Shown here: in pieces, positions 295 to 15,743 of the stretch
How the letters are laid out: the number at the start of each line of letters is the position of its first letter
How positions within the stretch are numbered: position 1 is the first letter of the stretch
DNA from: Gemmataceae bacterium
Lineage (GTDB): Bacteria > Planctomycetota > Planctomycetia > Gemmatales > Gemmataceae
Reading direction: 5' to 3'
DNA: 17,973 nt
Assembly (NCBI GenBank): GCA_022614915.1
Contig: JAKEHV010000558.1
Location: 1 to 17,973, forward strand
Program-made: the position numbers and the translations under genes
The notes under the pieces: generated by a model
What the model was told of the DNA's origin: nothing
Seen by the model: the letters and a program-made list of their open reading frames with translations, nothing else
Database searches by the model: none

Positions 295-867
295 TCAAGA
301 GTCCAAACAAGGCAAGGGATCCATTTCGATTGGCACGGGCCGGATTCCCGCAAAGAATCTTGCGCTTGACCACACCCAATCGGTCGCCTTCTCCACGAGA
401 CCGCGTCGAACGGGATTGTTGTGAATGTACTCGATCATCTGCAAAAGTGTGTACGGCTCAATCACATTTCGATCATAGCCTCCGCCGCGCTGCCAGAAAC
501 GATGATGCACCTTGCCGCTTGGCTGGACATCTTTCATTTGAGCCAGAAAGCGAGGCGCCTTGCTGCGAAGAAACCGTAACGCCTTGCGCTGTACGGGCAC
601 TTTGAGGGCTGTACGAATGTCTGCAATGTTGTAGTCTGGTTCCTGCGGCCAGACGATGATGTGCACGTGCTCCGGCATGATCACATAGGACAAAATGGAT
701 AATTTCAAATCGCGACGAGCATTGCGCATGGCGCTAATGAGCCATTGCCGGGTGCGATCCTTGGACAGGAGCTGGAGCCCGTGAAAACAGGAGAACGTGA
801 GTTCATGGGCTTCGCCCGGATTGTTGTAACTGCGGACTCGTTTGCGCTTGGATCCTTGCATGTTCAT
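295..867 (-). CDS. REP-associated tyrosine transposase (RAYT / TnpA-REP, IS200-like HuH transposase)
   Basis: Translation contains the HuH motif (IMPEHVHIIVWP) and the catalytic Tyr motif (FWQRGGGYDRNVI...YIHNNPVRRGLV) typical of RAYTs. It is flanked by inverted REPs. Start is taken at ATG 865-867 (MNMQGSKRKR...). The longer ORF reaching 1029 runs through REP copy C and is probably not translated. Confidence 0.85.
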   Translation of the reverse strand: MNMQGSKRKRVRSYNNPGEAHELTFSCFHGLQLLSKDRTRQWLISAMRNARRDLKLSILSYVIMPEHVHIIVWPQEPDYNIADIRTALKVPVQRKALRFLRSKAPRFLAQMKDVQPSGKVHHRFWQRGGGYDRNVIEPYTLLQMIEYIHNNPVRRGLVEKATDWVWSSARFFAGIRPVPIEMDPLPCLDS

Positions 868-874
868 TCCGTTC

Positions 875-955
875 TCTGGCGCTTCGCATGCCTTGGCGGT
901 GCTCGTCCCGGGTTCGCTGTCGTTGCACACGATCCGCCAAGGCATGCCACCCACG
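875..955 (-). repeat. REP element copy C, inverted relative to A/B, immediately 5' of the RAYT gene
   Basis: The reverse complement of 875-955 matches copy A (ggcatgccttggcggatcgtgtgcaacgacagcgaacccgggacgagcaccgccaaggcatgcgaagcgcc). Confidence 0.8.
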
Positions 956-1094
956 ACGCTGAATGATCGAGATTCAGCAAATCCCGATTCATCATCGCGC
1001 GTGCCTTCCTTGCGAGCAAGAAAAAACACTTTGCTTCATGGGGCAAAGATTGGAAAAATCGTGAGGAATCTCGAATGTCACAAGGAGCTTGTTA

Positions 1095-1992: not shown

Positions 1993-3477
1993 TCACGGAT
2001 TCGCGGTTCGGACACGCTTGGTTAGCTCATTGACTTTGCCGACAAGACGCTCTTCCACGCTCGGCGCAAAGGGTCCAGGCAAGAGAGTGAGGCGCATCGC
2101 GCCGCCGCCTTCGTAGCCGCCTTCCTTCAGGACGCGCACCGTCGGCACATAGCCAAACACGTCGTTGCAATAGCCTGCCACCCACACCGCTGCTCCGGCG
2201 CCGCCTAACTCCTTCTTCAGTCGCAATGAATAATCCACGACCGTTTCCCCCGCCAGGCCGACGAGCGTCAGGTCTTTGCCGAATTGGATTGCCTGGATGG
2301 GGTAGGAATACGTGGCGTGAATCTTGCCGGTCTTGTCGAGCTGATCGAGAAAGTGCTGGGCACGCTTTTGATCGGCAACAGTAGTCGACATCTTGAGCTT
2401 GATCAGCTCTTCACGCGACATGGGCACAAAGTCCAGGGTGACTGTTTCCAGCACGGAGCGCACCGGGCCCGCGACAGGCCGCGGCTTGGGCAAAAGCGCC
2501 GCCTCGACGGCGTTGGCCAGCGCCCGGCCATGCTGCTTGGCGTTTTCCAGCGTGCCGCGCGGATACGGGTTCTGGTCGCCGCCGCAGCCGGTCAGGAACA
2601 GGGCGACGGTTCCCGGCTGCGCCTGTTCCAGATACTCCTGCGCATAGCCCGCGTAGTCGCCGCAGTATTCGTAAAAGCTCAATGTCGTGTTGTGGCAGGC
2701 GTAGCCGAAGAGCACGGCGCGCAGCTTGCCGTCGGCGCTATCGATACGCAAAACGGGCACTTCGTGATCGACGGGCCCTTCGGGATACGGGCTGTTTTGA
2801 TAGCCCTTCGCGGTGGGCAACCGGCGATTCATGGCGAACCCCGCCCGCGCATGCGAATAGCCGAGCCGCGCAGGCGAAAGGTTCTTCAGAGCGTCGCCGA
2901 CAAGGTCAACGAGTTTTTCCTCCAACCCGGCGACATAATCCGCGATGCCCTTTACTTGAGCAGCATTAAGGTCATACAACACGGAGCCGCCGGAACGCAC
3001 GACGGGACCGCAGTGTGTGTGCGAAGCGTTCAAAAGCAAAGATTCGGGCAGAAGTTTATGACGGTCCCTGACCTTTTTCTCGACTGCCTCGCGCATCGAT
3101 CGGGTTATGCCGATGAGGTCCATGGTGACCAGGACGACGCGCTTGCCGGACGCGTCTTCCAGGGCCAGCGCCTTGGCATAGAGTTCTTGCGCTTTGCCCT
3201 CGGCGGGCTTCTTGCGGGCGGCGTAGCCGGCCATCCACAGGTTTTCTGTTGGGGTGATGACCAATTTGGCGACGCCGGCTTTCCAGACATCGCTGGCTGG
3301 TTGAGCTTGCGCGTCGCGGGACTGCAGAAAGATGCAAGCGAATAACAAACCACCCGCCAAAACCATCTTGAGCGCCACCAAACGATTCAGTTTGAGATCG
3401 CGCGCGGAGGTATCCGCAGGCACGATGGGATAGGGGACCGTCGGCGGTTGATCCGTGCTGTTGCCGGCATTGCTCAT
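1993..3477 (-). CDS. Neutral/alkaline ceramidase-family hydrolase (membrane-anchored or secreted)
   Basis: VVLVTMDLIGIT and NASHTHCGP resemble neutral ceramidase VFVSIDIGMVS and SGTHTHSGP. A hydrophobic signal/anchor segment (MVLAGGLLFACIFL) is present. The start is ambiguous: ATG 3477, ATG 3366 or TTG 3492. Confidence 0.65.
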   Translation of the reverse strand: MSNAGNSTDQPPTVPYPIVPADTSARDLKLNRLVALKMVLAGGLLFACIFLQSRDAQAQPASDVWKAGVAKLVITPTENLWMAGYAARKKPAEGKAQELYAKALALEDASGKRVVLVTMDLIGITRSMREAVEKKVRDRHKLLPESLLLNASHTHCGPVVRSGGSVLYDLNAAQVKGIADYVAGLEEKLVDLVGDALKNLSPARLGYSHARAGFAMNRRLPTAKGYQNSPYPEGPVDHEVPVLRIDSADGKLRAVLFGYACHNTTLSFYEYCGDYAGYAQEYLEQAQPGTVALFLTGCGGDQNPYPRGTLENAKQHGRALANAVEAALLPKPRPVAGPVRSVLETVTLDFVPMSREELIKLKMSTTVADQKRAQHFLDQLDKTGKIHATYSYPIQAIQFGKDLTLVGLAGETVVDYSLRLKKELGGAGAAVWVAGYCNDVFGYVPTVRVLKEGGYEGGGAMRLTLLPGPFAPSVEERLVGKVNELTKRVRTANP

Positions 3478-3644
3478 GAGGCGCCACCACAACTTGCTGA
3501 GAATCTTAATATACTAACGACAACTCAGGTGTCGAATGAGGCGCAATAAAACTTGCCCGGCAATCCCAATGTGTGCCGCGTCTTGGCGATTCCGGCTTGG
3601 GTCCTTAGAAAAGCTCCTTTCCTGTTACTTCGAGAATCTTTGCC

Positions 3645-4139
3645 ATGGACATTCGCCTGCAAGCGGTGACTGGAGTGGTGCCGCCGGAATTGGCCGAAGC
3701 GCGCATTCGCGAGGTGTGGCCGAGCGTGGCGCGGGCGCCGGGCATCGCCGCTTTGGGCAAGAGTTTGACGCGCACGATTGTCTTGGCCCCGCTGGCCTGG
3801 ATGCTGATGGGCATGGTTTACTTCGGTAAGGTGCTGCCCGTCTTCGCCCGTCGCTACGAATTGACCAATCGCCGGCTCGTGGTCCGCAAGGGTTGGAGCG
3901 GCAAGATCAGCGAGGAAATCCCATTGGCAAAGATCGACGCTGTGGAGATGGTAACCGACGCCAACACCGAATTCTTCCGTGCCGCGACATTGCGGATTCT
4001 GTCCGACGGCAAAGAAGCTATGGCATTGCCCGGCGTACCCGATCCTGAGTCTTTTCGCCAAGCCATACTCAACACGTGCAACGCTTGGGTGCCGGGTCGA
4101 AGCAAGTCGTTGCCCTTTGTTGCTGCCAGTGCGAAGTAA
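3645..4139 (+). CDS. Membrane-anchored bacterial PH-domain (bPH_2 / YdbS-YdbT-like) protein
   Basis: An N-terminal TM hairpin (IVLAPLAWMLMGMVYFGKVLPVF) is followed by YELTNRRLVVRKGWSGKISEEIPLAKIDAVEM, the bPH_2 signature (Y-x-LT-x-RRL...I..VE). Confidence 0.6.
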   Translation: MDIRLQAVTGVVPPELAEARIREVWPSVARAPGIAALGKSLTRTIVLAPLAWMLMGMVYFGKVLPVFARRYELTNRRLVVRKGWSGKISEEIPLAKIDAVEMVTDANTEFFRAATLRILSDGKEAMALPGVPDPESFRQAILNTCNAWVPGRSKSLPFVAASAK

Positions 4140-5885: not shown

Positions 5886-7604
5886 ATGTTTGCTTCACTC
5901 TTCGCGCAGGGTCCCAGCGGCCTTCCCATCTCTTGGCCCGCGTTGACGCTCATCATCGTCGCGGTGATGGTGTTTTTCACCATTCTCATGCTGTTTGTGC
6001 GCCGCTATAAGCGTTGCCCCAGCAACCAGGTCCTGGTCATCTTCGGCAAGTACACCGGCAGCCCCACCGGCACTCGCTGCCTGCACGGCGGGGCGCGTCT
6101 CGTGCTGCCGCTCGTGCAAGACTACTCGTATCTGAGCCTGGAGCCCATTCAGATCGAGGTTCCGCTCAAAGGCGCCTTGTCGATGGAGAACATCCGCGTC
6201 AATGTCCCCAGTGTCTTCACCGTCGCCATTGGCACCAATCCGGAAACCATGCAGAACGCGGCCATCCGTTTGCTCGGACTCGACATCAACGAGATCAAGC
6301 AGCAAGCGGGCGACATCATTTTCGGCCAGCTCCGCCAGGTCATCGCGTCGATGAAGATCGACGAAATCAACCGGGACCGCGACAAGTTTCTACAAAGCAT
6401 TCAAACTTCTTTGGAGATCGAGCTGCAGAAAATCGGCTTGGTGCTCATCAACGTCAACATCACCGACATCACGGACGAGTCCGGCTACATCGAAGCCATC
6501 GGTCGCAAGGCGGCGTCCCAGGCGGTGCAGCAGGCCAAGATCGACGTGGCGGAGCAGGAAAAGCATGGGCAAATCGGCGTGGCCGAGGCGGACCGGGAAA
6601 AGTCGATCCAGGTGGCCAACGCGACCAAGCTGCGCGAGATCGGCACGCGCGAGGCCCTGCGCGAGCAGGCGGTGCGGGTCGCCCAATTGGAAAAGGAAAA
6701 GAAGGTCGGCGAAGAAACGGCGGCCCTGGAGCGTGAAACCCAGATCAAGGAGGCGCAGCGGCTCCAGGCCGTCCGCGTCGCCGAGTTGGATAAGGAACAA
6801 AAAGTCGGCGAGCAGCAAGCGGCGTTCGAGAAAGAGGCGCAGGTGAAGGACGCCGAGCGCAAAATGCGTGTTTCCATCGCCGACGCCAACGCCAAGGCCA
6901 TCGCCGGCGAGGCCCACGCCCAGGCGGAAGTCGCGCTGGCCCAAGCGAATCTGCAAGTGAAGCAAGCCGAGGCGTTTCAACTGGGCGAGACCCGCAAGCG
7001 CGAAGCCGACGCTGCCGTCCAGGAAGCGCAGCACCGTGCCCAGGCCAAGGCCGCGTTGGCCCAAGCCGAGCGCATCGAGGCCGAACGCCGCGCCCAATTG
7101 GAAGCGACGGCCAAAGCGGAAAAAGCCAAGGTCATCGTCGAAGCCGAGGCGGAAGCCGAAAAGCATCGCATCGAGGCGCAGGGCGAGGCCTCAGCCATCT
7201 TCGCCAAGCTCGACGCCGAAGCCCGTGGCCAATACGAGATCCTCGCCAAGAAAGGCGAGGGCCTCAAGCGCATCATCGACGCGTGCGGCGGCGCCCAGCA
7301 AGCCTTTCAGCTTCTCATGCTGGAGCACCTCGACAACCTCGCGCAGACGGCGGCCCAGGCCATCTCCAACATCAAGTTCGACAAAGTCATCGTTTGGGAA
7401 AACGGCGGCAACGGAACCGGCACAACCAACACGTCCCAATTCCTGCAAGGCATGGCCCGCACCCTGCCACCCATGATGCAAGTCATGAAGGACATCGGCG
7501 GCATCGAAATCCCTGATTACATCGCGCGCTTTACTGCGGAATCAAAGCCCGCGGACAAGGCGGCCGTGGACGGCGAGCGGCCGGTGGAGGCGGGAAAAAA
7601 GTGA
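5886..7604 (+). CDS. floT: Flotillin-like SPFH/band-7 protein (FloT/YuaG-like) with an extended Glu/Ala-rich coiled coil
   Basis: N-terminal TM helix, then an SPFH domain (LSLEPIQIEVPLKGALSMENIRVNVPSVFTVAIG...), then long EA/KQ repeats, then a C-terminal flotillin tail. Begins 8 nt after nfeD. Confidence 0.85.
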   Translation: MFASLFAQGPSGLPISWPALTLIIVAVMVFFTILMLFVRRYKRCPSNQVLVIFGKYTGSPTGTRCLHGGARLVLPLVQDYSYLSLEPIQIEVPLKGALSMENIRVNVPSVFTVAIGTNPETMQNAAIRLLGLDINEIKQQAGDIIFGQLRQVIASMKIDEINRDRDKFLQSIQTSLEIELQKIGLVLINVNITDITDESGYIEAIGRKAASQAVQQAKIDVAEQEKHGQIGVAEADREKSIQVANATKLREIGTREALREQAVRVAQLEKEKKVGEETAALERETQIKEAQRLQAVRVAELDKEQKVGEQQAAFEKEAQVKDAERKMRVSIADANAKAIAGEAHAQAEVALAQANLQVKQAEAFQLGETRKREADAAVQEAQHRAQAKAALAQAERIEAERRAQLEATAKAEKAKVIVEAEAEAEKHRIEAQGEASAIFAKLDAEARGQYEILAKKGEGLKRIIDACGGAQQAFQLLMLEHLDNLAQTAAQAISNIKFDKVIVWENGGNGTGTTNTSQFLQGMARTLPPMMQVMKDIGGIEIPDYIARFTAESKPADKAAVDGERPVEAGKK

Positions 7605-7752
7605 TTACCACGTTGTTCTTGCGATTGCATAACTCTTGACCATTCACGACTTTTGGAACGGGATGGAGGGCGGCAGGCTCACGAAGTTGCTTGAGTCGAT
7701 TGGAGCCTCGCCATAAGCTTGGGCTGGCCGAATGCAGTTCTTTCAGTCCGCG

Positions 7753-9504
7753 TCACCTCGCCTTGCGCACGTGCAGTAATATTGGATCTGTACCCTCGAT
7801 GGTATCGCGCCGCGTCAGTGCCAAAACCTGATCCGGCGTCACGCAGTCGGCAGGGTCGCGCTTTGGGTCGGGCCGCAGCCAGCGTTTGAAGCTGAGGCTG
7901 TAGGACAGCCCGCTATGGGGAAGCGTGAAGTTGAGCGTGTCGCCGTAAGAAGACGGGGCGTTGCCGGTCGGCTCGCCGAGCACCTTGCCGATCTTGTTGT
8001 CTTGCACGAAGACAGCGAACCAATTGCCGCTGCTGAACGTGGCTTTTGAGGTCAGCACGAATACCTGACCGCGAAACGGCTTTTCGACGCGGGTGTTCGG
8101 AACTTTGCGCGGATCGTAGCGCATGACGCCGCTCGCCAATTTGGCAAGGCCGGTTTGCCGGGCGCGCGCCTCCTCGGACCAGCGAATAACACTGCCGGGT
8201 ACGTGGTAGCTGTCCACATCGACGTAGCGCAGAAATTCGTTGATCACGGTGGAGTTGCCGCCGCTGTTGCGACGCACATCCACCGCGATGCGGCTGATCT
8301 TCATTTGGCGCACGGCTTCAAAGAACTTGCGGAGCGAGTCCTTGTACAAATCGTTGTTTAGGCACTGGTCCACGATGAAGATGCCAAGGTCGTTGCTCTC
8401 GTCGATTTCGAAGCGGACCCACGGCGGACGACTGCCGGCGGCCGCGGCGCCTGCCAGCGACGCCGTTAACTCCAACTCTTTCCCATTGCGCTCGATCGTG
8501 ATCTTTACCGGCGCCTCGTCAACAATTCCGAGCGTGCGCAAGAAGCCCACGTCGCGCAGGAAGCTCTCCGCGCGATGCCGCACCCAATGAGCGTTTTCGG
8601 CTGGGAGGACCCCGCGCAGCAACTCGAGAAGTTGTGGCTCTGTTTTCGTACCGATGCGCACAAGGCGATCGCCTTTCTGCAGCGCGCCTGTGTTCGCATT
8701 CACGATCATGCCCTCACTGGTCCAAAGAAACGGCATGTCCAGCAATTCGCCGGTCCGCACCGGCTCGACGGCGGAATGCGCGTCGTGCAGCGTGTGCATG
8801 ACCCGGCTCAAAGTGAGCCAGAAACGGTCTCGGCGCATGGGGGCCGACAGCTCGTCACGCGCCCGCTTCAACGCCGCCTCGACGCCGCCCGGCAAACCGT
8901 CGATCGCCGCCGGGTGAACATTCTTGATTTTCGCCGCCAATTCCTCCAGATCGGCGACAAGTTGCTTCACCGCCAGAGCCGGGCCGACAAAGCTGCCCGC
9001 CGCCAAGATGCGCGTGCCGTCGGCAACCACCCATTCGGTCGGTCCGTGAAAGACGGCGTTGATTTCCGGCACATCTTCCGCTTTGGCAGCCGTATAGAGG
9101 ACAGCCCGGCGCTTGGGATCGTCGGGATTGCGGATTGCACAGATGACGCGCAGCCTCTTGCCCTCGAAGCGCTGGCCTTCGAGGACAACAGCGCCCTTGT
9201 CAAAAGAAAAGGGCAGCTTCAACGTGCGCAGCCAGGCATGTTCCGGCGTGCCATAAACGATGACATCGACGCCGGCGAAGCGCTTGTCGAGCGGCTCCTT
9301 GTCGTCGATGAGCTCCGCCTTGGTAAAAAACTGCTTTTGCACAACTTGGGCAATGCTCTGGATCACGGGATCGTCTTGCGCGACGATTACCTGTTTGGGC
9401 CCGCCCAGAGCCGCGTTGATGCTGCCGGCGGGAACGAGTTCCTGCGAAAACGCAGCAAAAGGTATGGACCACACAAGAAAGCACAAAGCGATACGGTGGG
9501 ACAT
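7753..9504 (-). CDS. S41-family peptidase (C-terminal processing / tail-specific protease-like), secreted
   Basis: Signal peptide (MSHRIALCFLVWSIPFAAFSQ). The block RIAVDVRRNSGGNSTVINEF matches the S41 DxRxNxGG motif. PDZ-like LQKGDRLVRIG. Convergent with the flotillin gene. Confidence 0.7.
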   Translation of the reverse strand: MSHRIALCFLVWSIPFAAFSQELVPAGSINAALGGPKQVIVAQDDPVIQSIAQVVQKQFFTKAELIDDKEPLDKRFAGVDVIVYGTPEHAWLRTLKLPFSFDKGAVVLEGQRFEGKRLRVICAIRNPDDPKRRAVLYTAAKAEDVPEINAVFHGPTEWVVADGTRILAAGSFVGPALAVKQLVADLEELAAKIKNVHPAAIDGLPGGVEAALKRARDELSAPMRRDRFWLTLSRVMHTLHDAHSAVEPVRTGELLDMPFLWTSEGMIVNANTGALQKGDRLVRIGTKTEPQLLELLRGVLPAENAHWVRHRAESFLRDVGFLRTLGIVDEAPVKITIERNGKELELTASLAGAAAAGSRPPWVRFEIDESNDLGIFIVDQCLNNDLYKDSLRKFFEAVRQMKISRIAVDVRRNSGGNSTVINEFLRYVDVDSYHVPGSVIRWSEEARARQTGLAKLASGVMRYDPRKVPNTRVEKPFRGQVFVLTSKATFSSGNWFAVFVQDNKIGKVLGEPTGNAPSSYGDTLNFTLPHSGLSYSLSFKRWLRPDPKRDPADCVTPDQVLALTRRDTIEGTDPILLHVRKAR

Positions 9505-10242: not shown

Positions 10243-12267
10243 GTGGATAGTCGAATCAGTCGCACCATGGCAGAATCAGCGTCACAACCATTGTCGCCTT
10301 CCCAAGGAATTCTCAGTCAACTCCGAATCCGGCTAGGCCTAGGTCTTTTGCGCTTGGCGACCGAAGGCCGCCCGTCCGAGGCGGATGCCATTGCCGTTAT
10401 CCACACCGCGCTCGATCAGGGCGTTCGTCTGCTTGATACGGCCGACTCCTATGCGCAGAGCGACGCCGATTTTCACTATGGCGAGCGATTGGCAAGTCAA
10501 GCGTTAGCATCGTGGCAGGGACCCAAGGACGAAATCAAAGTCCTTACCAAGGCCGGCCTGACTCGACCCAAAGGGCGCTGGGTCCCCAACGGCCGGCCTG
10601 AGCACTTGCGGAAGGCGGTCGACGGCAGTCTGCAAGCCCTTGGCGTCGAGCGGCTGTTCCTGTTGCAACTTCATGCCCACGATCCACGCGTGCCGTTCGA
10701 GGAAACGCTCGCAGCGCTGGCCGAATTGCAGCGCGCGGGCAAAGTCGAGCATTTGGGACTTTGCAATGTCACTCCGTTGGAGCTCAAGCAAGCGCAGCGG
10801 CACTTTCGCGTGGCCGTCGTGCAGAACGAACTGAGTGTACTCAATCGCAAGAGCGCGGCGGACGGCATGCTGGAATGGACGAGGCAGCAAGGGATACCTT
10901 TCCTGGCGCATCGGCCGCTCGGCGGCTACGCCAAGGTTGCCCGCCTTGCCAAGAACCAGGTGCTCGGACCGCTCGCCGAACGGCACAACGCGACGCCGCA
11001 CCAGGTTGCCTTGGCCGCTCTCTTAGTCGCAAGCCCGCACGTCGTGCCGCTGGTCGGCGCCACCCGCGCCGAAAGCGTGCTCTCCTCAGTGGCCGCGCTA
11101 CGCATCTCGCTAGATGTGAGCGACCGCACGGCGTTGGAAATGCGCTATTCGTTCGCCGCGGAACCCGACGCGCTCGCCTTCATCGCACCCCCTACTCCAA
11201 TCATCGAACAGAAGGCTGCCCCTTCACGCCTTCACCCTTTCACCCCTTCACCTCTTCCCGCTGCTGTGCCAGCCCAAGCCCAAACACTAAGTCCCGGCGC
11301 CGATCCCGAGGTCGTGCTTCTCACGGGCATTCAAGGGGCGGGAAAGTCGGAATTGGTCGCGACTTATCTCGAAAAGGGCTATGCACGCCTTAATCGCGAT
11401 CTGTTGGGCGGCAAGCTTGATGACCTGGTGCCGCGCCTCGTGCAGCACTTGCGCTCGGGACAAATACGCGTGGTCTTGGACAACACCTATCCAACGCGGG
11501 TATCGCGCGCTCCGGTCATCGCCGCCGCGCTGGCTCATGGCGTGCCGGTGCATTGCCGGCATCTGGCGACGCCGCTCGCTGAGGCGCACATCAACATCGT
11601 CCTGCGCACCTTGGCGAAATACGGCCGGCTTTTGGGTCCGGAAGACATGAAAGCGCTCAACAAAACCGACCCGAACCTGCCGCCGCCGCCCGCGCTTTTG
11701 CGCTACGTCGGCAGCTTCGAGCCGCCGGCGCTCGACGAAGGCTTCACGGCCTTGGAGACGATCCCGTTCGTCCGCCGGGTCAATCAGCGCCACACCGAGA
11801 AAGGCATTTTGCTCGACGTGGATGGCACGCTGCGCAAAACGCGCAGCGGCGAGATTTATCCGCGCCATCCCGACGACCAGGAGCTGTTGCCCGGTCGCCG
11901 GCCGACGCTGGCCCGTTGGATCGAAGCGGGCTATCGGCTTTTCTTCGTCTCGAACCAAAGCGGCGTCGCCTCGGGCAAGCTCGACCGGGCAGTTGCGGAA
12001 GCGGCATTTCTGCGCACCGCCGAGATTTTGCAATTGCCGGTCGCGGAGGTCGCCTATTGCCCGCACCCCGCCTTCCCCGTCGGCTGCTATTGCCGAAAAC
12101 CGATGCCTGGTCTTGGCATCTATTTGATGCAACGCCATCGGCTGGCCCGCGAACAGCTCATCGTCGTGGGCGACATGGACAGCGACGCGCAATTCGCCGC
12201 CGGATTGGGCGCACGCTACTTCGATGCGACAACGTTCTTCGCCCTCAACGGCCCGAGACCAGAATAG
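10243..12267 (+). CDS. Tri-domain fusion: aldo/keto reductase + PNK-like P-loop kinase + HAD-IIIA phosphatase (GmhB/PNKP-like, Zn-binding Cys loop)
   Basis: AKR domain aa ~20-300: LDTADSYA, VLTKAG, LLQLHAHDP (catalytic D/Y/K/H positions). A Pro-rich linker follows. The Walker A motif (LLTGIQGAGKS), VVLDNTY and the R-x3-R motif (TRVSR) match a T4-Pnk-like kinase. The HAD motif I (LLDVDGTL), plus CPHPAFPVGCYCRKPMPGLG and VVGDMDSD, match the GmhB/PNKP-type phosphatase with a Cys zinc loop. The start is 10243, with ATG 10267 as an alternative. Confidence 0.7.
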   Translation: MDSRISRTMAESASQPLSPSQGILSQLRIRLGLGLLRLATEGRPSEADAIAVIHTALDQGVRLLDTADSYAQSDADFHYGERLASQALASWQGPKDEIKVLTKAGLTRPKGRWVPNGRPEHLRKAVDGSLQALGVERLFLLQLHAHDPRVPFEETLAALAELQRAGKVEHLGLCNVTPLELKQAQRHFRVAVVQNELSVLNRKSAADGMLEWTRQQGIPFLAHRPLGGYAKVARLAKNQVLGPLAERHNATPHQVALAALLVASPHVVPLVGATRAESVLSSVAALRISLDVSDRTALEMRYSFAAEPDALAFIAPPTPIIEQKAAPSRLHPFTPSPLPAAVPAQAQTLSPGADPEVVLLTGIQGAGKSELVATYLEKGYARLNRDLLGGKLDDLVPRLVQHLRSGQIRVVLDNTYPTRVSRAPVIAAALAHGVPVHCRHLATPLAEAHINIVLRTLAKYGRLLGPEDMKALNKTDPNLPPPPALLRYVGSFEPPALDEGFTALETIPFVRRVNQRHTEKGILLDVDGTLRKTRSGEIYPRHPDDQELLPGRRPTLARWIEAGYRLFFVSNQSGVASGKLDRAVAEAAFLRTAEILQLPVAEVAYCPHPAFPVGCYCRKPMPGLGIYLMQRHRLAREQLIVVGDMDSDAQFAAGLGARYFDATTFFALNGPRPE

Positions 12268-12338
12268 ACTCGACTACACTGGCGTTCCAAACCCGATAAA
12301 CTAGTAGTGTCACACTCAGTTGAGGTAGGGTGCAAGTA

Positions 12339-12671
12339 GTGAACAAGCGCTTTTTGATGAACGCCGGCCGAACGACCAAGCAAGGACAGCAAATCAACGT
12401 GGGCAAAGATTCCGCTGAATATCAAGCAATCGTCAACACCATCACGATGCACGCGGACGATATGAAGGAAGTGGGCATTGCCGCCGGCGCCACCGTCCGC
12501 GTCCGTTCCGATAATGGCGAGGCGCTTTTTCAGTGCAAAGAAGGTAAAGTCCCTCCGGGGATGATTTTCGTGCCGTATGGACCGCCGACTTGCCGCCTCA
12601 TGGGCCAAACCACCGACGGCACCGGCATGCCCACGTCGAAGGGTTGGGAAGTCGAAGTGGAACCGGCATAG
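12339..12671 (+). CDS. fwdD: Formylmethanofuran dehydrogenase subunit D-like (stand-alone molybdopterin-dinucleotide-binding domain)
   Basis: ~110-aa protein (NAGRTTKQGQ...TDGTGMPTSKGWEVEVE) resembling FwdD/FmdD (MxVxLNTGRTxxQG...TDGTGMP). Directly upstream of fwdB. The start is GTG 12339 or GTG 12330, with GAGGT upstream. Confidence 0.65.
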   Translation: MNKRFLMNAGRTTKQGQQINVGKDSAEYQAIVNTITMHADDMKEVGIAAGATVRVRSDNGEALFQCKEGKVPPGMIFVPYGPPTCRLMGQTTDGTGMPTSKGWEVEVEPA

Positions 12672-14884: not shown

Positions 14885-15325
14885 ATGAGTGAGCAACTTG
14901 AACAACGCTTTGACGCAGCGATGATGGATATCTATCGTCGTGCAAAGTCAGAAGCAAATTACAACGCCAGTCGCTTCTTTCAGATGCTTACCGAGCATCG
15001 GGGTCTTGAGACAGCCCGTATCCTACTGCACGCGGACACGGTCTCGGAAGGTTACACTGCTCTTTGGGAGCGTGGCCGTCTCGACCTGACCGTTGAAGCG
15101 CTTATTCACGACCATCCTGAGTTTCATCCCCTGTTCACTCAGGAGGAGCTAGGCATTGCGCGACGGCGTCTGATTGACTACAAGTATCCGCCGCTTATTG
15201 ATCCTGTCGAGCCGCTCATTGGGCGGTTCCCAAGCAACGTCCCGAATTGGACGACCGAACACGACAAACACCTTGGGCAGGCGCTAATGGAGGAAATGCG
15301 CGGCAAGAGCGGCGCCGGGGGCTGA
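14885..15325 (+). CDS. Hypothetical protein, candidate cognate partner (antitoxin-position) of the downstream PIN toxin
   Basis: Its stop (TGA 15323-15325) is separated by 1 nt from the PIN gene ATG (gctGAcATGccg), i.e. translational coupling. No family recognised from sequence. Confidence 0.45.
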   Translation: MSEQLEQRFDAAMMDIYRRAKSEANYNASRFFQMLTEHRGLETARILLHADTVSEGYTALWERGRLDLTVEALIHDHPEFHPLFTQEELGIARRRLIDYKYPPLIDPVEPLIGRFPSNVPNWTTEHDKHLGQALMEEMRGKSGAGG

Positions 15326-15326
15326 C

Positions 15327-15743
15327 ATGCCGGAGTTGTTCGCGGACACGTCGGGGTGGGGGAATTTGGTGGACCCCACGGAGCCCTACCATTCATTGGC
15401 GGCAAGCATCTACCGCACGGCGCGCCAACAAGCACACAAACTCGTCACCACGAATTACGTTTTGGCTGAACTTGTGGCGTTGCTCACCAGTCCGCTTGGC
15501 TTTCCTCGGCCAACAATCGTAACAATCATCGACGGTTTCAAGCATTCACCCTTTGTCGAAGTAGTTCATGTGGACCAGGTCTTGGATTCGGCCGCGTGGC
15601 AACTCTTGCGAAATCGACTGGATAAGGACTGGAGCCTGGTTGACTGTGCGAGCTTTGTTCTTATGCAAAACCGTGGCATCATTGAAGCACTGACCACGGA
15701 TCATCACTTCGAACAGGCAGGGTTGGTCCGTCTCTTGAAATGA
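15327..15743 (+). CDS. vapC: PIN-domain ribonuclease (VapC-like toxin)
   Basis: All four PIN acidic residues are present in the expected places: LFADTSGW (D7), VLAELVAL (E), SLVDCASF (D), TTDHHFEQAG (D). Confidence 0.7.
   Translation: MPELFADTSGWGNLVDPTEPYHSLAASIYRTARQQAHKLVTTNYVLAELVALLTSPLGFPRPTIVTIIDGFKHSPFVEVVHVDQVLDSAAWQLLRNRLDKDWSLVDCASFVLMQNRGIIEALTTDHHFEQAGLVRLLK

Follow-up and report, generated by a model that had tools for sequence, protein, structure and literature searches.

A widespread bacterial fusion of an aldo-keto reductase with a polynucleotide-kinase-like kinase and a zinc-loop HAD phosphatase: a candidate enzyme for healing damaged polynucleotide ends

The window (the whole stretch of 17,973 nucleotides that was analysed) harbors, at 10243..12267 on the + strand, an ORF of 674 codons plus stop whose product combines an aldo-keto reductase (AKR) with a P-loop kinase and a HAD phosphatase on a single chain. 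We propose, with a probability of about 0.4, that the product is a conserved three-activity enzyme that heals damaged polynucleotide ends. An earlier note on this DNA had described a single ORF joining three catalytic modules, and Pfam/NCBIfam domain searches indeed find AKR, kinase and HAD. The same order, sought in other genomes, turned up widely, including in complete genomes, and the AKR-kinase-HAD protein is a widely conserved, unstudied bacterial enzyme. The fusion had been called unusual; in fact it is widespread and common in several phyla, although it does appear to be undescribed, as the note had suspected: literature searches found no description of this architecture, and databases give such proteins generic names only.

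The gene is, practically beyond doubt, a real fusion. The idea of an artefact, whether from chimeric assembly or from a frameshift that joined separate genes, has next to no probability and is refuted by the protein search and the search of a species-representative genome collection. The protein search returned 682 matches; each of the best 120 spans all three domains at full length (61-100% identity), and full-length homologues at 60-75% identity number in the hundreds, spread over Planctomycetota, Myxococcota (among them Sorangium cellulosum So ce56), Verrucomicrobiota and Lysobacterales. The genome collection holds relatives in 107 stretches from at least four phyla. Furthermore, cultured strains with complete genomes also encode the full-length architecture (Sorangium cellulosum So ce56, NC_010162; Minicystis rosea, CP016211; Nannocystis punicea, CP114040). 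Finally, the frame of 10243-12267 (+) is uninterrupted: a stop or frameshift between the domains, named earlier as the observation that would speak against the fusion, is not seen. Comparison of homologue N-termini in the alignment suggests that translation likely begins at ATG 10267 (M9), for a product of 666 aa. An identical protein, P0001, comes from a metagenome-assembled Gemmataceae genome, which is apparently also the kind of source the window comes from. Its GenBank model starts later, at TTG 10354, and with 637 aa it lacks conserved residues. The neighbours in the window (SPFH, S41 peptidase, PIN and amidohydrolase) are unrelated to the AKR-kinase-HAD gene, and a search upstream of the gene(s) found no SOS-box-like motif.

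The N-terminal module is an (α/β)8 AKR barrel at residues 27-303 (10321..11151, +), recognized by Pfam Aldo_ket_red (PF00248) at residues 30-296 with E 4e-46 over profile positions 1-284 of 291. The catalytic tetrad, which the note had rightly read as intact, consists of D65 (10435-10437), Y70 (10450-10452, in the context D65-T-A-D-S-Y70), K103 (10549-10551) and H144 (10672-10674), all on the + strand, and is invariant in 37/37 close homologues and in 61-62/62 distant AKR-containing representatives. From established AKR knowledge, we take N175 and Q194 (nicotinamide) and T274 and R275 (G-x-T/S-R, 2'-phosphate) to be NAD(P)H-binding positions; across the 62 representatives they are kept in 62, 52, 44 (Ser in 10) and 49, respectively. 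The module is thus predicted, from sequence and model, to be an NADPH-type reductase. The closest PDB entry is AKR13B2 (8HNQ; E 5e-40, 37% identity over 275 columns, TM 0.84 with the AF2 model), other PDB matches lying at 27-30% identity, and the nearest structures are all small-molecule enzymes: the 3-keto-deoxynivalenol-type reductase AKR13B2, the pyridoxal reductase PdxI (8TE8/8TF1) and perakine reductase (AKR13D1, 3V0S). These AKR13 reductases share the barrel (TM 0.81-0.84), the tetrad and the cofactor-binding motifs with the window protein. However, they are stand-alone, whereas the window AKR is fused and its catalytic Tyr is followed by a conserved insertion of 9 residues (..Y70-AQSDADFHYGE..), of which H78, G80 and E81 are invariant. 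AKR nomenclature defines family membership by more than 40% identity to members; at 37% to AKR13B2, a borderline value under that threshold, the window's AKR would found a new family. The NCBIfam list also includes a weak Kv-beta match. To our knowledge, the known substrates of AKRs are all small molecules, and we know of no AKR that acts on a polynucleotide terminus.

The barrel is followed by the Pro-rich linker described in the note (residues 304-352, 11152..11298, +), predicted from pLDDT and alignment to be disordered. In the AF2 model, residues 319-347 have pLDDT <50, and the linker varies in length among homologues. Its pairwise identity is 36%, against 0.64 for the AKR, 0.66 for the kinase and 0.70 for the HAD domain, so that by alignment the three domains appear about equally conserved. 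The full-length AF2 model reaches pLDDT 86 and pTM 0.77.

The P-loop domain (residues 353-516, 11299..11790, +) is polynucleotide-kinase-like. It is matched by Pfam AAA_33 (residues 357-453, E 3e-8) and by the kinase part of NCBIfam TIGR01663 PNK-3'Pase (312-517). All its motifs lie on the + strand: Walker A G362-IQGAGK-S369 (11326-11349), N384-R-D386 with the putative general base D386 (11392-11400), D413-N-T415 (11479-11487) and the invariant lid residues N451/R455 (11593-11607). These are directly followed by a family-specific lid insert of 29 residues, TLAKYGRLLGPEDMKALNKTDPNLPPPPA (11608-11694), that ends in DPNLPPPxA and contains a 17-residue insertion relative to mouse PNKP. Of the T4-Pnk-like features proposed before, Walker A and D-N-T held; the literal R-x3-R did not, the invariant lid residues being N451 and R455. 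In T4 Pnk, D35 occupies the general-base position and T86 the backbone-phosphate position. UMP/CMP kinase has Gly at the general-base position, as in PFK-2. In the alignment with mouse PNKP, R385, D386 (in N-R-D396 of the mouse protein) and T415 correspond to Arg395, Asp396 and Thr423; each of the three, like K368 of Walker A, is kept in 61/62 representatives. Mouse Asp396 is the general base, Arg395 and Thr423 contact the backbone phosphate, and the Asp396 position is Gly in small-molecule kinases such as PFK-2 (PMC2764422). The alignment shows no conservation of mouse surface-1 residues W401, R403 and R432 in the window kinase.

Searches against solved structures point in the same direction. 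With the C-terminal half as query, mouse PNKP (1YJ5/3ZVL) is the best PDB sequence match (E 2e-26, both domains matched), the kinase domain scoring 51.6 bits (i-E 8e-13). The top Foldseek matches of the kinase are 3U7F, 1YJ5, 3ZVL, T4 Pnkp, Pnkp1 (E 6e-9), 9DRZ and CthPnk, and PFK-2 is about 10^6-fold weaker than the polynucleotide kinases. Among viral structures in BFVD, the neighbours are phage and giant-virus Pnk/PNKP proteins. By sequence and by model, polynucleotide kinases are the solved proteins closest to the kinase-phosphatase half. Pnkp1 belongs to the Pnkp1/Rnl/Hen1 RNA-repair complex, and a fungal RNA 5'-OH kinase is also found among the neighbours.

The HAD-IIIA phosphatase domain (residues 517-666, 11791..12240, +) is matched by Pfam PNK3P (residues 523-645, E 5e-6) and TIGR01662 (78.2 bits vs cutoff 44.6). 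It contains motif I D525-V-D-G-T529 (11815-11829), motif II S570-N-Q (11950-11958), a zinc loop running into motif III, CPHPAFPVGCYCRKP (C606-P-H608...C615-Y-C617-R-K-P, 12058-12102), and motif IV G643-D-MDS-D648 (12169-12186), all on the + strand. Within the window's subfamily D525-V-D-G-T, S570, K619 and G643-D...D648 are invariant. The same is true of the loop residues C606, H608, C615 and C617, for which metal binding is predicted from the motif. The note had labelled this loop GmhB/PNKP-type. The first half of the label is apt, since the loop is of the GmhB/HisB-N type, but the second must be dropped, as mouse PNKP lacks cysteines there and shows a gap in the alignment. Among PDB entries, the domain on its own scores best with GmhB and HisB-N structures (4PNH, 67 bits; 2FPR; 3L8H), the PNKP phosphatase domain reaching 38 bits, although its scores with the GmhB/HisB equivalogs lie far under their cutoffs (PRK08942, 65.4 vs 178; TIGR00213, 41 vs 149.6; NF050049, 26 vs 250).

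In a large sister clade, the phosphatase has decayed. Motif I is degenerate in 31/33 representative clusters of 560-700 aa, the nucleophile Asp being replaced by E, W, Q or G, and motifs II and IV are usually changed too (SNQ to SWQ, GD to GR). The AKR tetrad and the kinase motifs stay intact across AKR-containing representatives. Because the HAD decays while the other two sites are maintained, selection keeps reductase and kinase together, and AKR plus kinase is, by these alignments, the conserved catalytic pair.

The window protein resembles several known systems without matching any of them. Mammalian PNKP (1YJ5, 3ZVL, 3U7E-H; TIGR01663), a 5'-kinase and 3'-phosphatase of strand-break ends, is, by sequence, the solved protein nearest to both kinase and HAD (kinase about 32% identity) and shares Walker A, N-R-D, D-N-T, DxDGT, T/S-N-Q and R-K-P. 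However, PNKP has the order FHA-phosphatase-kinase and neither zinc loop nor AKR, while the window protein has both, lacks an FHA domain and places the kinase before the phosphatase. With 94.9 bits against the TIGR01663 equivalog cutoff of 502.8, a mammalian-type PNKP was rejected. T4 Pnkp (PseT; 1LTQ, 2IA5, 1RPZ) has kinase and HAD phosphatase on one chain in the same order, as the note had pointed out, and the Foldseek alignments with 2IA5, 1LTQ and 1RPZ span both domains in that order (339 columns, E 8e-11). Yet identity is 13-15%, phmmer does not detect the relationship at E<=0.01, the two domains are oriented differently to each other (rmsd about 13 Å), and T4 Pnkp lacks both zinc loop and AKR. 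GmhB and HisB-N share with the window HAD the C-x-H...C-x-C loop directly before R-K-P, but they are small one-domain enzymes, phosphatases of sugars or amino alcohols, encoded in biosynthetic operons, whereas the window protein has no pathway neighbours. Identity as a GmhB heptose-1,7-bisphosphate phosphatase was rejected on the equivalog scores and on the lack of heptose/LPS biosynthesis genes, none of which is present in the window or conserved across 86 loci. The bacterial systems Pnkp/Hen1 (Clostridium thermocellum) and Pnkp1/Rnl/Hen1 (4XRU) are also multi-module end-healing assemblies built around a P-loop 5'-OH polynucleotide kinase. In contrast to the window protein, CthPnkp contains a metallophosphoesterase instead of a HAD plus a ligase domain, these systems form an operon with Hen1, and none includes a reductase. 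Since the window protein has neither of these domains, and no Hen1-like neighbour was found in the window or across the 86 loci, this assignment was rejected as well.

Genomic context differs between the fused and the stand-alone forms. Across the 86 loci no neighbour is conserved, and none of these loci is flanked by genes of sugar, heptose or B6 pathways; polA adjoins only four, two labelled Nannocystis and two on unlabelled metagenome contigs. Stand-alone homologues of the kinase-HAD half (about 310 aa, 39-43% identity) occur in phages, as does T4 Pnkp: wherever the contig is long enough to judge, it is phage-like. One of them lies with Tpt1/KptA 64 bp downstream (L096), another with the NAD-dependent DNA ligase LigA 1.4 kb downstream (L098), a third with Fpg/Nei 0.8 kb downstream (L090), and a fourth has RtcB on the same contig (L086). 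RtcB does not need Pnkp chemistry. Two stand-alone homologues (P0153, P0166) match phrog_505 'polynucleotide kinase', the group of phage Pnk; the window's C-terminal half has no PHROG match.

How the three activities might cooperate can be outlined as follows. The AKR would reduce an aldehydic terminus, namely the nucleoside 5'-aldehyde left by C5' sugar oxidation (hydroxyl radical, enediynes), to a 5'-OH. The kinase, whose R385 and T415 would grip the first backbone phosphate while D386 serves as general base, would then phosphorylate this 5'-OH. Across the same break, the HAD would use nucleophile D525 to clear the 3'-phosphate, leaving a ligatable 3'-OH/5'-P nick. The 5'-aldehyde is the most logical AKR substrate because only its reduction feeds a neighbouring domain, by providing 5'-OH for the kinase. 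The note had offered 3'-phosphoglycolaldehyde and abasic ends as examples; these are less logical, since reduction of a 3' aldehyde yields no substrate for either neighbour. The parts of this scheme differ in strength. From sequence and structural models, the kinase-HAD module quite probably acts on polynucleotide ends, with DNA somewhat more likely than RNA as the substrate. That the AKR acts on an aldehydic nucleic-acid end is a tentative proposal, and that this end is specifically a 5'-aldehyde is doubtful. C5' oxidation yields the 5'-aldehyde as a major and long-lived product, for whose removal only long-patch BER is known (PMC12564780). Enediyne breaks combine it with a 3'-phosphate or 3'-phosphoglycolate, and its resolution there is described as 'essentially unknown' (PMC3825254). 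5'-aldehyde termini are among the most abundant hydroxyl-radical/enediyne ends and persist for days. According to reviews, no specific end-processing enzyme is known for them, only generic long-patch displacement synthesis (PMC12564780, PMC3825254, bioRxiv 10.1101/2025.02.19.636396).

Several observations count against end healing: the lack of a conserved neighbour or SOS-box-like motif and the unrelated genes in the window, the preference of the HAD for GmhB over the PNKP phosphatase together with its small-molecule-type zinc loop, and the small-molecule substrates of the nearest AKR structures. The protein could instead serve small-molecule salvage or repair, the AKR reducing a free carbonyl (a sugar, vitamin B6 vitamer, nucleoside 5'-aldehyde or similar), the kinase phosphorylating the alcohol, and the HAD removing a different phosphate or controlling flux; in that case the likeness to PNKP would be due to shared ancestry alone. 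The affinities of the HAD and of the AKR, which include pyridoxal reductase, would fit, as would the lack of DNA-repair neighbours at most loci, and reduction followed by phosphorylation explains the conserved AKR-kinase pair equally well. Moreover, one can conceive of a mononucleotide as substrate, given that T4 Pnk accepts nucleoside 3'-monophosphates. We nevertheless consider this unlikely. The kinase keeps the general-base Asp (Gly in PFK-2) and the backbone-phosphate Arg and Thr, invariant; its top structural neighbours are all polynucleotide kinases; GmhB and HisB models fall far short of their cutoffs; no sugar, heptose or B6 genes adjoin the 86 loci; and stand-alone homologues adjoin Tpt1, LigA or Fpg/Nei in phage contigs. 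Between the two alternatives left by the note, a nucleic-acid end and sugar-phosphate salvage, the PNKP-specific residues, the structural neighbours and the phage homologues beside Tpt1, LigA, Fpg and RtcB thus favour the former.

It is also improbable, though worth weighing, that the protein is a Pnkp whose AKR never touches nucleic acid, being either a detoxifier of diffusible reactive aldehydes that sugar oxidation sets free or an NADP(H)-sensing, regulatory or scaffolding module. Base propenals, furfural, butenedial and methylglyoxal are aldehydes of this kind, and Kv-beta AKRs are a regulatory-type module for channels. All evidence for a Pnkp-type module supports this version too, as do the weak Kv-beta match and the exclusively small-molecule substrates of known AKRs, and the long, disordered and variable linker is compatible with an independently acting domain. 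On the other hand, a purely regulatory AKR would not need a tetrad that is invariant in such diverged representatives, and the pTM of 0.77 speaks for domains that are arranged in a defined way and not strung like beads. Detoxification leaves unexplained the strict fusion in sampled cellular genomes, while every stand-alone form on a contig long enough to judge lies in a phage-like one, and an independent AKR does not explain why it and the kinase stay catalytic while the HAD decays.

Healing of polynucleotide ends is the reading we prefer. By joining an intact aldehyde reductase to a polynucleotide kinase-phosphatase, the fusion provides a tangible candidate for the missing 5'-aldehyde end-processing enzyme, in a family that spans several phyla and includes the cultured Sorangium cellulosum So ce56. 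Still unlikely, on our estimate, is the boldest form of the proposal, that the family is the first dedicated 'direct-reversal' enzyme for C5'-oxidised breaks, in one polypeptide reducing the 5'-aldehyde with NADPH, phosphorylating the 5'-OH and removing the 3'-phosphate. If true, a hydroxyl-radical or enediyne break would be turned into a ligatable nick without resynthesis or flap removal, and the sister clade would use its decayed HAD only to recognise the break. An enzyme active on oligonucleotide ends might also be a useful reagent. Even if the 5'-aldehyde idea is wrong, the family would give PNKP-like end-healing enzymes their first oxidoreductase partner, offers a natural series of pseudo-phosphatases and represents an uncharacterised, widespread bacterial and phage PNKP-like clade, marked by a zinc-loop HAD and a lid insert.

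The open reading frame at 10243-12267 (+) runs through 674 codons without interruption and encodes an aldo-keto reductase (AKR; Aldo_ket_red, residues 30-296, Pfam E 4e-46), a P-loop kinase (AAA_33, residues 357-453, E 3e-8) and a HAD phosphatase (PNK3P, residues 523-645, E 5e-6). The tri-domain fusion that an earlier note had read from the sequence is thus borne out, and the intact frame together with full-length homologues rules out a product of misassembly or frameshift. The AKR carries the tetrad D65/Y70/K103/H144, the kinase a Walker A motif (residues 362-369), N-R-D (384-386) and D-N-T (413-415), and the phosphatase the HAD motifs DVDGT (525-529), SNQ (570-572) and GDMDSD (643-648). All motifs named in the earlier note are in place, except that R-x3-R does not occur literally; in the lid, N451 and R455 are the invariant positions. 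The zinc loop with its RKP motif (CPH...CxCRKP, residues 606-620) is also present, but it is a feature of GmhB and HisB-N and not of the PNKP type, as mouse PNKP is gapped there. The linker between AKR and kinase (304-352) is Pro-rich, disordered in the AlphaFold2 model and poorly conserved.

Judged by sequence, the protein belongs to the AKR superfamily, to the polynucleotide-kinase clade of P-loop enzymes, all of whose sequence-level defining features it has, and to HAD subfamily IIIA, with a match to TIGR01662 above the curated cutoff (NCBIfam). The kinase portion matches the eukaryotic PNK-3'Pase model TIGR01663 at 312-517, the whole-protein score (E 4e-27) being far under the equivalog cutoff, and NCBIfam has no curated model covering AKR, kinase and HAD domain together. 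AKR families are delimited at 40% identity; the nearest member is at 37%, which places this AKR marginally outside AKR13. Compared with AKR13B2, it has a conserved 9-residue insertion after the catalytic Tyr (Y70-AQSDADFHYGE, window 10450-10485, residues 70-81), in which H78, G80 and E81 are invariant and which is a candidate substrate-specificity loop. The start of the gene is probably ATG 10267, because homologues begin 13-20 residues ahead of a conserved 'GVLGxL'. P0001, an identical protein from a Gemmataceae MAG in GenBank, is annotated with 637 aa from TTG 10354 (L38), a start that removes the family-invariant G34, L36 and R37 (window 10243-10362); judged against the homologue N-termini, which ATG 10267 matches better, it is placed too late.

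A fold search with the full-length model (pLDDT 86.3, pTM 0.77) returned only AKRs, so a second model was built for the C-terminal half (pLDDT 91.8, pTM 0.87). By sequence, the closest solved relatives of this half are mouse PNKP structures (1YJ5, 3ZVL, 3U7E-H; E 2e-26), to which both the kinase and the HAD domain align, though in permuted order. Taken by itself, the HAD domain further matches GmhB (67 bits) and HisB-N in the PDB sequence search. Its fold neighbours are PNKP, T4 Pnkp, Pnkp1 of the Pnkp1/Rnl/Hen1 RNA-repair complex, a fungal RNA 5'-OH kinase and Clostridium thermocellum Pnk, and, among viral models, phage Pnk/PseT, baculovirus NRK-1 and giant-virus PNKP, whereas 6-phosphofructo-2-kinase appears only at about 1e-5. 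T4 Pnkp aligns across both domains in the same kinase-phosphatase order, as the earlier note had proposed, although the inter-domain orientation differs. The protein is nevertheless not a mammalian PNKP equivalog (no FHA, reversed order, low score), nor GmhB (scores under the cutoffs, no pathway context), nor a member of the Pnkp-Hen1 system.

The kinase residues point in the same direction as the fold. In mouse PNK, Asp396 serves as general base towards the 5'-OH, a position taken by Gly in small-molecule P-loop kinases, while Arg395 and Thr423 touch the phosphodiester backbone (PMC2764422). The equivalents of R395-D396 and T423 are R385-D386 and T415, which are invariant in close homologues and, among diverged representatives with an AKR, retained in 61-62 of 62; the family shows no conservation at the more distal W401, R403 and R432, which bind DNA in the mouse enzyme. 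Relative to mouse PNKP, the kinase lid contains a 29-residue insert of the family's own (window 11608-11694, residues 456-484) with a nearly invariant end, K-x-D-P-N-L-P-P-P-x-A. Because stand-alone phage homologues have it too, the insert is a marker of the bacterial and phage clade and not of the AKR fusion.

The fusion, which the earlier note took to be unusual, is not rare: full-length tri-domain homologues occur in several phyla. A search of 5.8 billion proteins gave 682 matches, and the best 120 of these are all full-length tri-domain proteins with the same domain order (61-100% identity). In a scan that took a single genome for each species, 107 genomic stretches proved to carry relatives, and 80 loci were retained from them. 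Carriers include Planctomycetota (Gemmataceae, Pirellula), Myxococcota (Sorangium cellulosum So ce56, Minicystis rosea and several Nannocystis species), Verrucomicrobiota, Lysobacterales/Rhodanobacteraceae and MAGs labelled Burkholderiales. The Sorangium cellulosum So ce56 orthologue occupies 10,477,373-10,479,247 of NC_010162, and Pirellula staleyi has an orthologue as well. In an alignment of 37 tri-domain homologues, constraint is equal over the three domains (pairwise identity: AKR 0.64, kinase 0.66, HAD 0.70) and falls to 0.27-0.36 in the linker and N-terminal tail. Source names for the homologues are limited to 'HAD-IIIA family hydrolase', 'aldo/keto reductase' and 'histidinol-phosphate phosphatase family protein', and the literature searched contained nothing relevant on an AKR-kinase-HAD fusion or connecting AKRs with DNA ends in any way; the earlier view that the architecture is undescribed therefore stands.

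Searched exhaustively with HMMER, 1.84 billion representatives yielded 7105 relatives of the C-terminal half, 326 of them at E<=1e-30. The best 150 of the 7105 fall into three architectures: stand-alone kinase-HAD proteins of about 310 aa (approximately 48), AKR-kinase-HAD proteins of 560-700 aa, and AKR-kinase-HAD proteins of 700-1059 aa that are extended at the N-terminus by a conserved domain of about 150 aa. This last domain precedes the AKR, includes the motifs 'LxFCExxEAxRLGxxW' and 'DWSGG', and has no Pfam match even at E<=5. Long-form members (about 740-1059 aa) are the homologues P0122, P0127, P0128, P0131, P0133, P0136, P0137, P0141, P0143 and P0149, and P0133 has an additional C-terminal extension of about 300 aa. 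Among the 560-700 aa representatives, HAD motif I is degenerate in 31 of 33 clusters and motifs II and IV are usually altered too. In this sister clade Glu, Trp, Gln or Gly stands in place of the nucleophilic Asp (ExDGV, WCDGV), SNQ becomes SWQPE and the GD of motif IV becomes GR (GRxxxD), while the zinc loop is usually kept. Its members (570-630 aa) include P0151, P0161, P0162, P0164, P0170, P0181 and P0185, as well as P0277 at locus L092; the neighbourhoods of L092 and of a long-form locus (L093) are uninformative. The degenerate domain is an apparent pseudo-phosphatase and looks like a catalytic module turned binding module, whereas the window protein falls in a subfamily with all three active sites intact. 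Throughout the AKR-containing representatives, the AKR tetrad and the kinase motifs are each intact in 61-62 of 62. Since both are maintained while the HAD domain decays, selection has kept reductase and kinase as an obligatory pair, which speaks for a catalytic AKR that works in functional coupling with the kinase and is not a passenger.

The stand-alone forms provide a context for the kinase-HAD module. On contigs long enough to judge, 5 of 5 are in phage-like contigs, 4 of which carry nucleic-acid repair genes near the homologue: a Tpt1/KptA RNA 2'-phosphotransferase (L096, 9045-9659, 64 bp downstream of the homologue at 8007-8981), an NAD-dependent DNA ligase (L098, 9397-11472, 1.4 kb downstream of 7001-7960), an Fpg/Nei glycosylase (L090, 4544-5332, 0.8 kb downstream of 2818-3753) and RtcB, which shares its contig with the homologue (L086, 1-372 and 8001-8942). 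These four homologues have 39-43% identity. Two huge phages also encode stand-alone homologues, and P0153 and P0166 match PHROG 505, 'polynucleotide kinase'; the neighbours in the huge phage LR756511.1 and the viral contig L097 are uninformative. Together these proteins appear to form an uncharacterised clade of phage Pnkp whose HAD domain has a zinc loop. On the combined phage context, residue evidence and fold evidence, we assign the kinase-HAD module to polynucleotide end healing and not to sugar-phosphate metabolism. Of the two functions offered in the earlier note, the processing of nucleic-acid ends is accordingly favoured over sugar-phosphate salvage; a role in the heptose pathway was rejected (scores far under cutoffs, pathway genes absent from the context).

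Since the AKR must produce an alcohol and the substrate of the kinase is a 5'-OH, a nucleoside 5'-aldehyde, a product of C5' hydrogen abstraction, is proposed as the AKR substrate: it would be the sole aldehydic nucleic-acid terminus to give a 5'-OH on reduction. Reduction of the 3'-phosphoglycolaldehyde suggested earlier, or of 3'-PUA, would give a substrate for neither the kinase nor the HAD domain, and reduction of 5'-dRP would prevent its removal by a lyase. The 5'-aldehyde, a major product, persists with a half-life of days; its removal is known only by non-specific long-patch BER (PMC12564780, section 2.5); a 2025 preprint calls it the most abundant hydroxyl-radical break end, without specific end processing (bioRxiv 10.1101/2025.02.19.636396). 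In the proposed scheme, the AKR would reduce the 5'-CHO to 5'-OH, the kinase would convert 5'-OH to 5'-P, and the HAD domain would convert 3'-P to 3'-OH, so that a C5'-oxidised break would become a ligatable nick. The scheme is inferred from the logic of the domains.

Several features of the genomic context weigh against this scheme. When ORFs from 86 loci were clustered (minimum length 100 aa), no neighbour proved to be conserved across phyla. polA adjoins the gene in four loci, L001 and L016 (labelled Nannocystis) and the metagenome contigs L004 and L005 (9961-12630 in L001, 5180-7957 in L004/L005), in two orientations, convergent downstream or divergent 44 bp upstream in at least two of the four; it is not adjacent in the remaining Nannocystis, Sorangium or Planctomycetota loci, and the adjacency is weak evidence. 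A scan of 540 nt around the start of the gene, made in some 80 loci with LexA-box consensus sequences for Xanthomonadales, Verrucomicrobia, E. coli, Myxococcus, Gram-positives and Alphaproteobacteria, showed no enrichment. Two palindromes of the form CTGT-N8-ACAG occur in Pirellula loci; they were dismissed because they lie over the start codon, in leader sequence that is itself homologous. PADLOC gives no anti-phage defence match for the gene or its neighbours. The window neighbours are unrelated (SPFH, S41 peptidase, a molybdopterin-binding-domain ORF, PIN, amidohydrolase). Directly downstream, the 113-aa ORF at 12330-12671 (+) consists of a molybdopterin-dinucleotide-binding domain only (PF01568, E 6e-14), either a stand-alone domain protein or the leftover of a larger molybdoenzyme. 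The PIN-domain gene at 15327-15743 (+, E 4e-6) begins one base after a 146-aa ORF (14885-15325, +) that has no family match, possibly a toxin-antitoxin pair. At 295-1029 (-), weak similarity to an IS200-like Y1 transposase (E 3e-4, 21.2 bits, under the 23-bit cutoff) may reflect a degraded mobile element or chance.

A small-molecule pathway of reduction followed by phosphorylation keeps some likelihood, albeit a rather low one, because the HAD domain is most like GmhB/HisB-N, the AKR is most like AKR13B2, pyridoxal reductase and perakine reductase, and the loci show neither a conserved neighbour nor an SOS-like operator; the polynucleotide-specific kinase residues, the folds and the phage context oppose it. 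Slightly less probable again is a Pnkp-type enzyme in which the AKR deals with diffusible aldehydes or acts as an NADP(H) sensor. This would share the kinase-HAD evidence with the end-healing reading; an AKR carried as a mere passenger is countered by the retention of tetrad and kinase motifs. The polynucleotide end-healing reading is preferred, and the window protein is predicted to act like a Pnkp/PNKP-type enzyme.

The earlier observation is therefore confirmed and its interpretation partly supported and sharpened. We found no earlier description of the AKR fusion, of a zinc-loop HAD domain within a Pnkp-type protein, of the lid insert or of the sister clade with its pseudo-HAD domain. The architecture is surprising for specialists in nucleic-acid repair, and would make the processing of 5'-aldehyde ends addressable with one protein.
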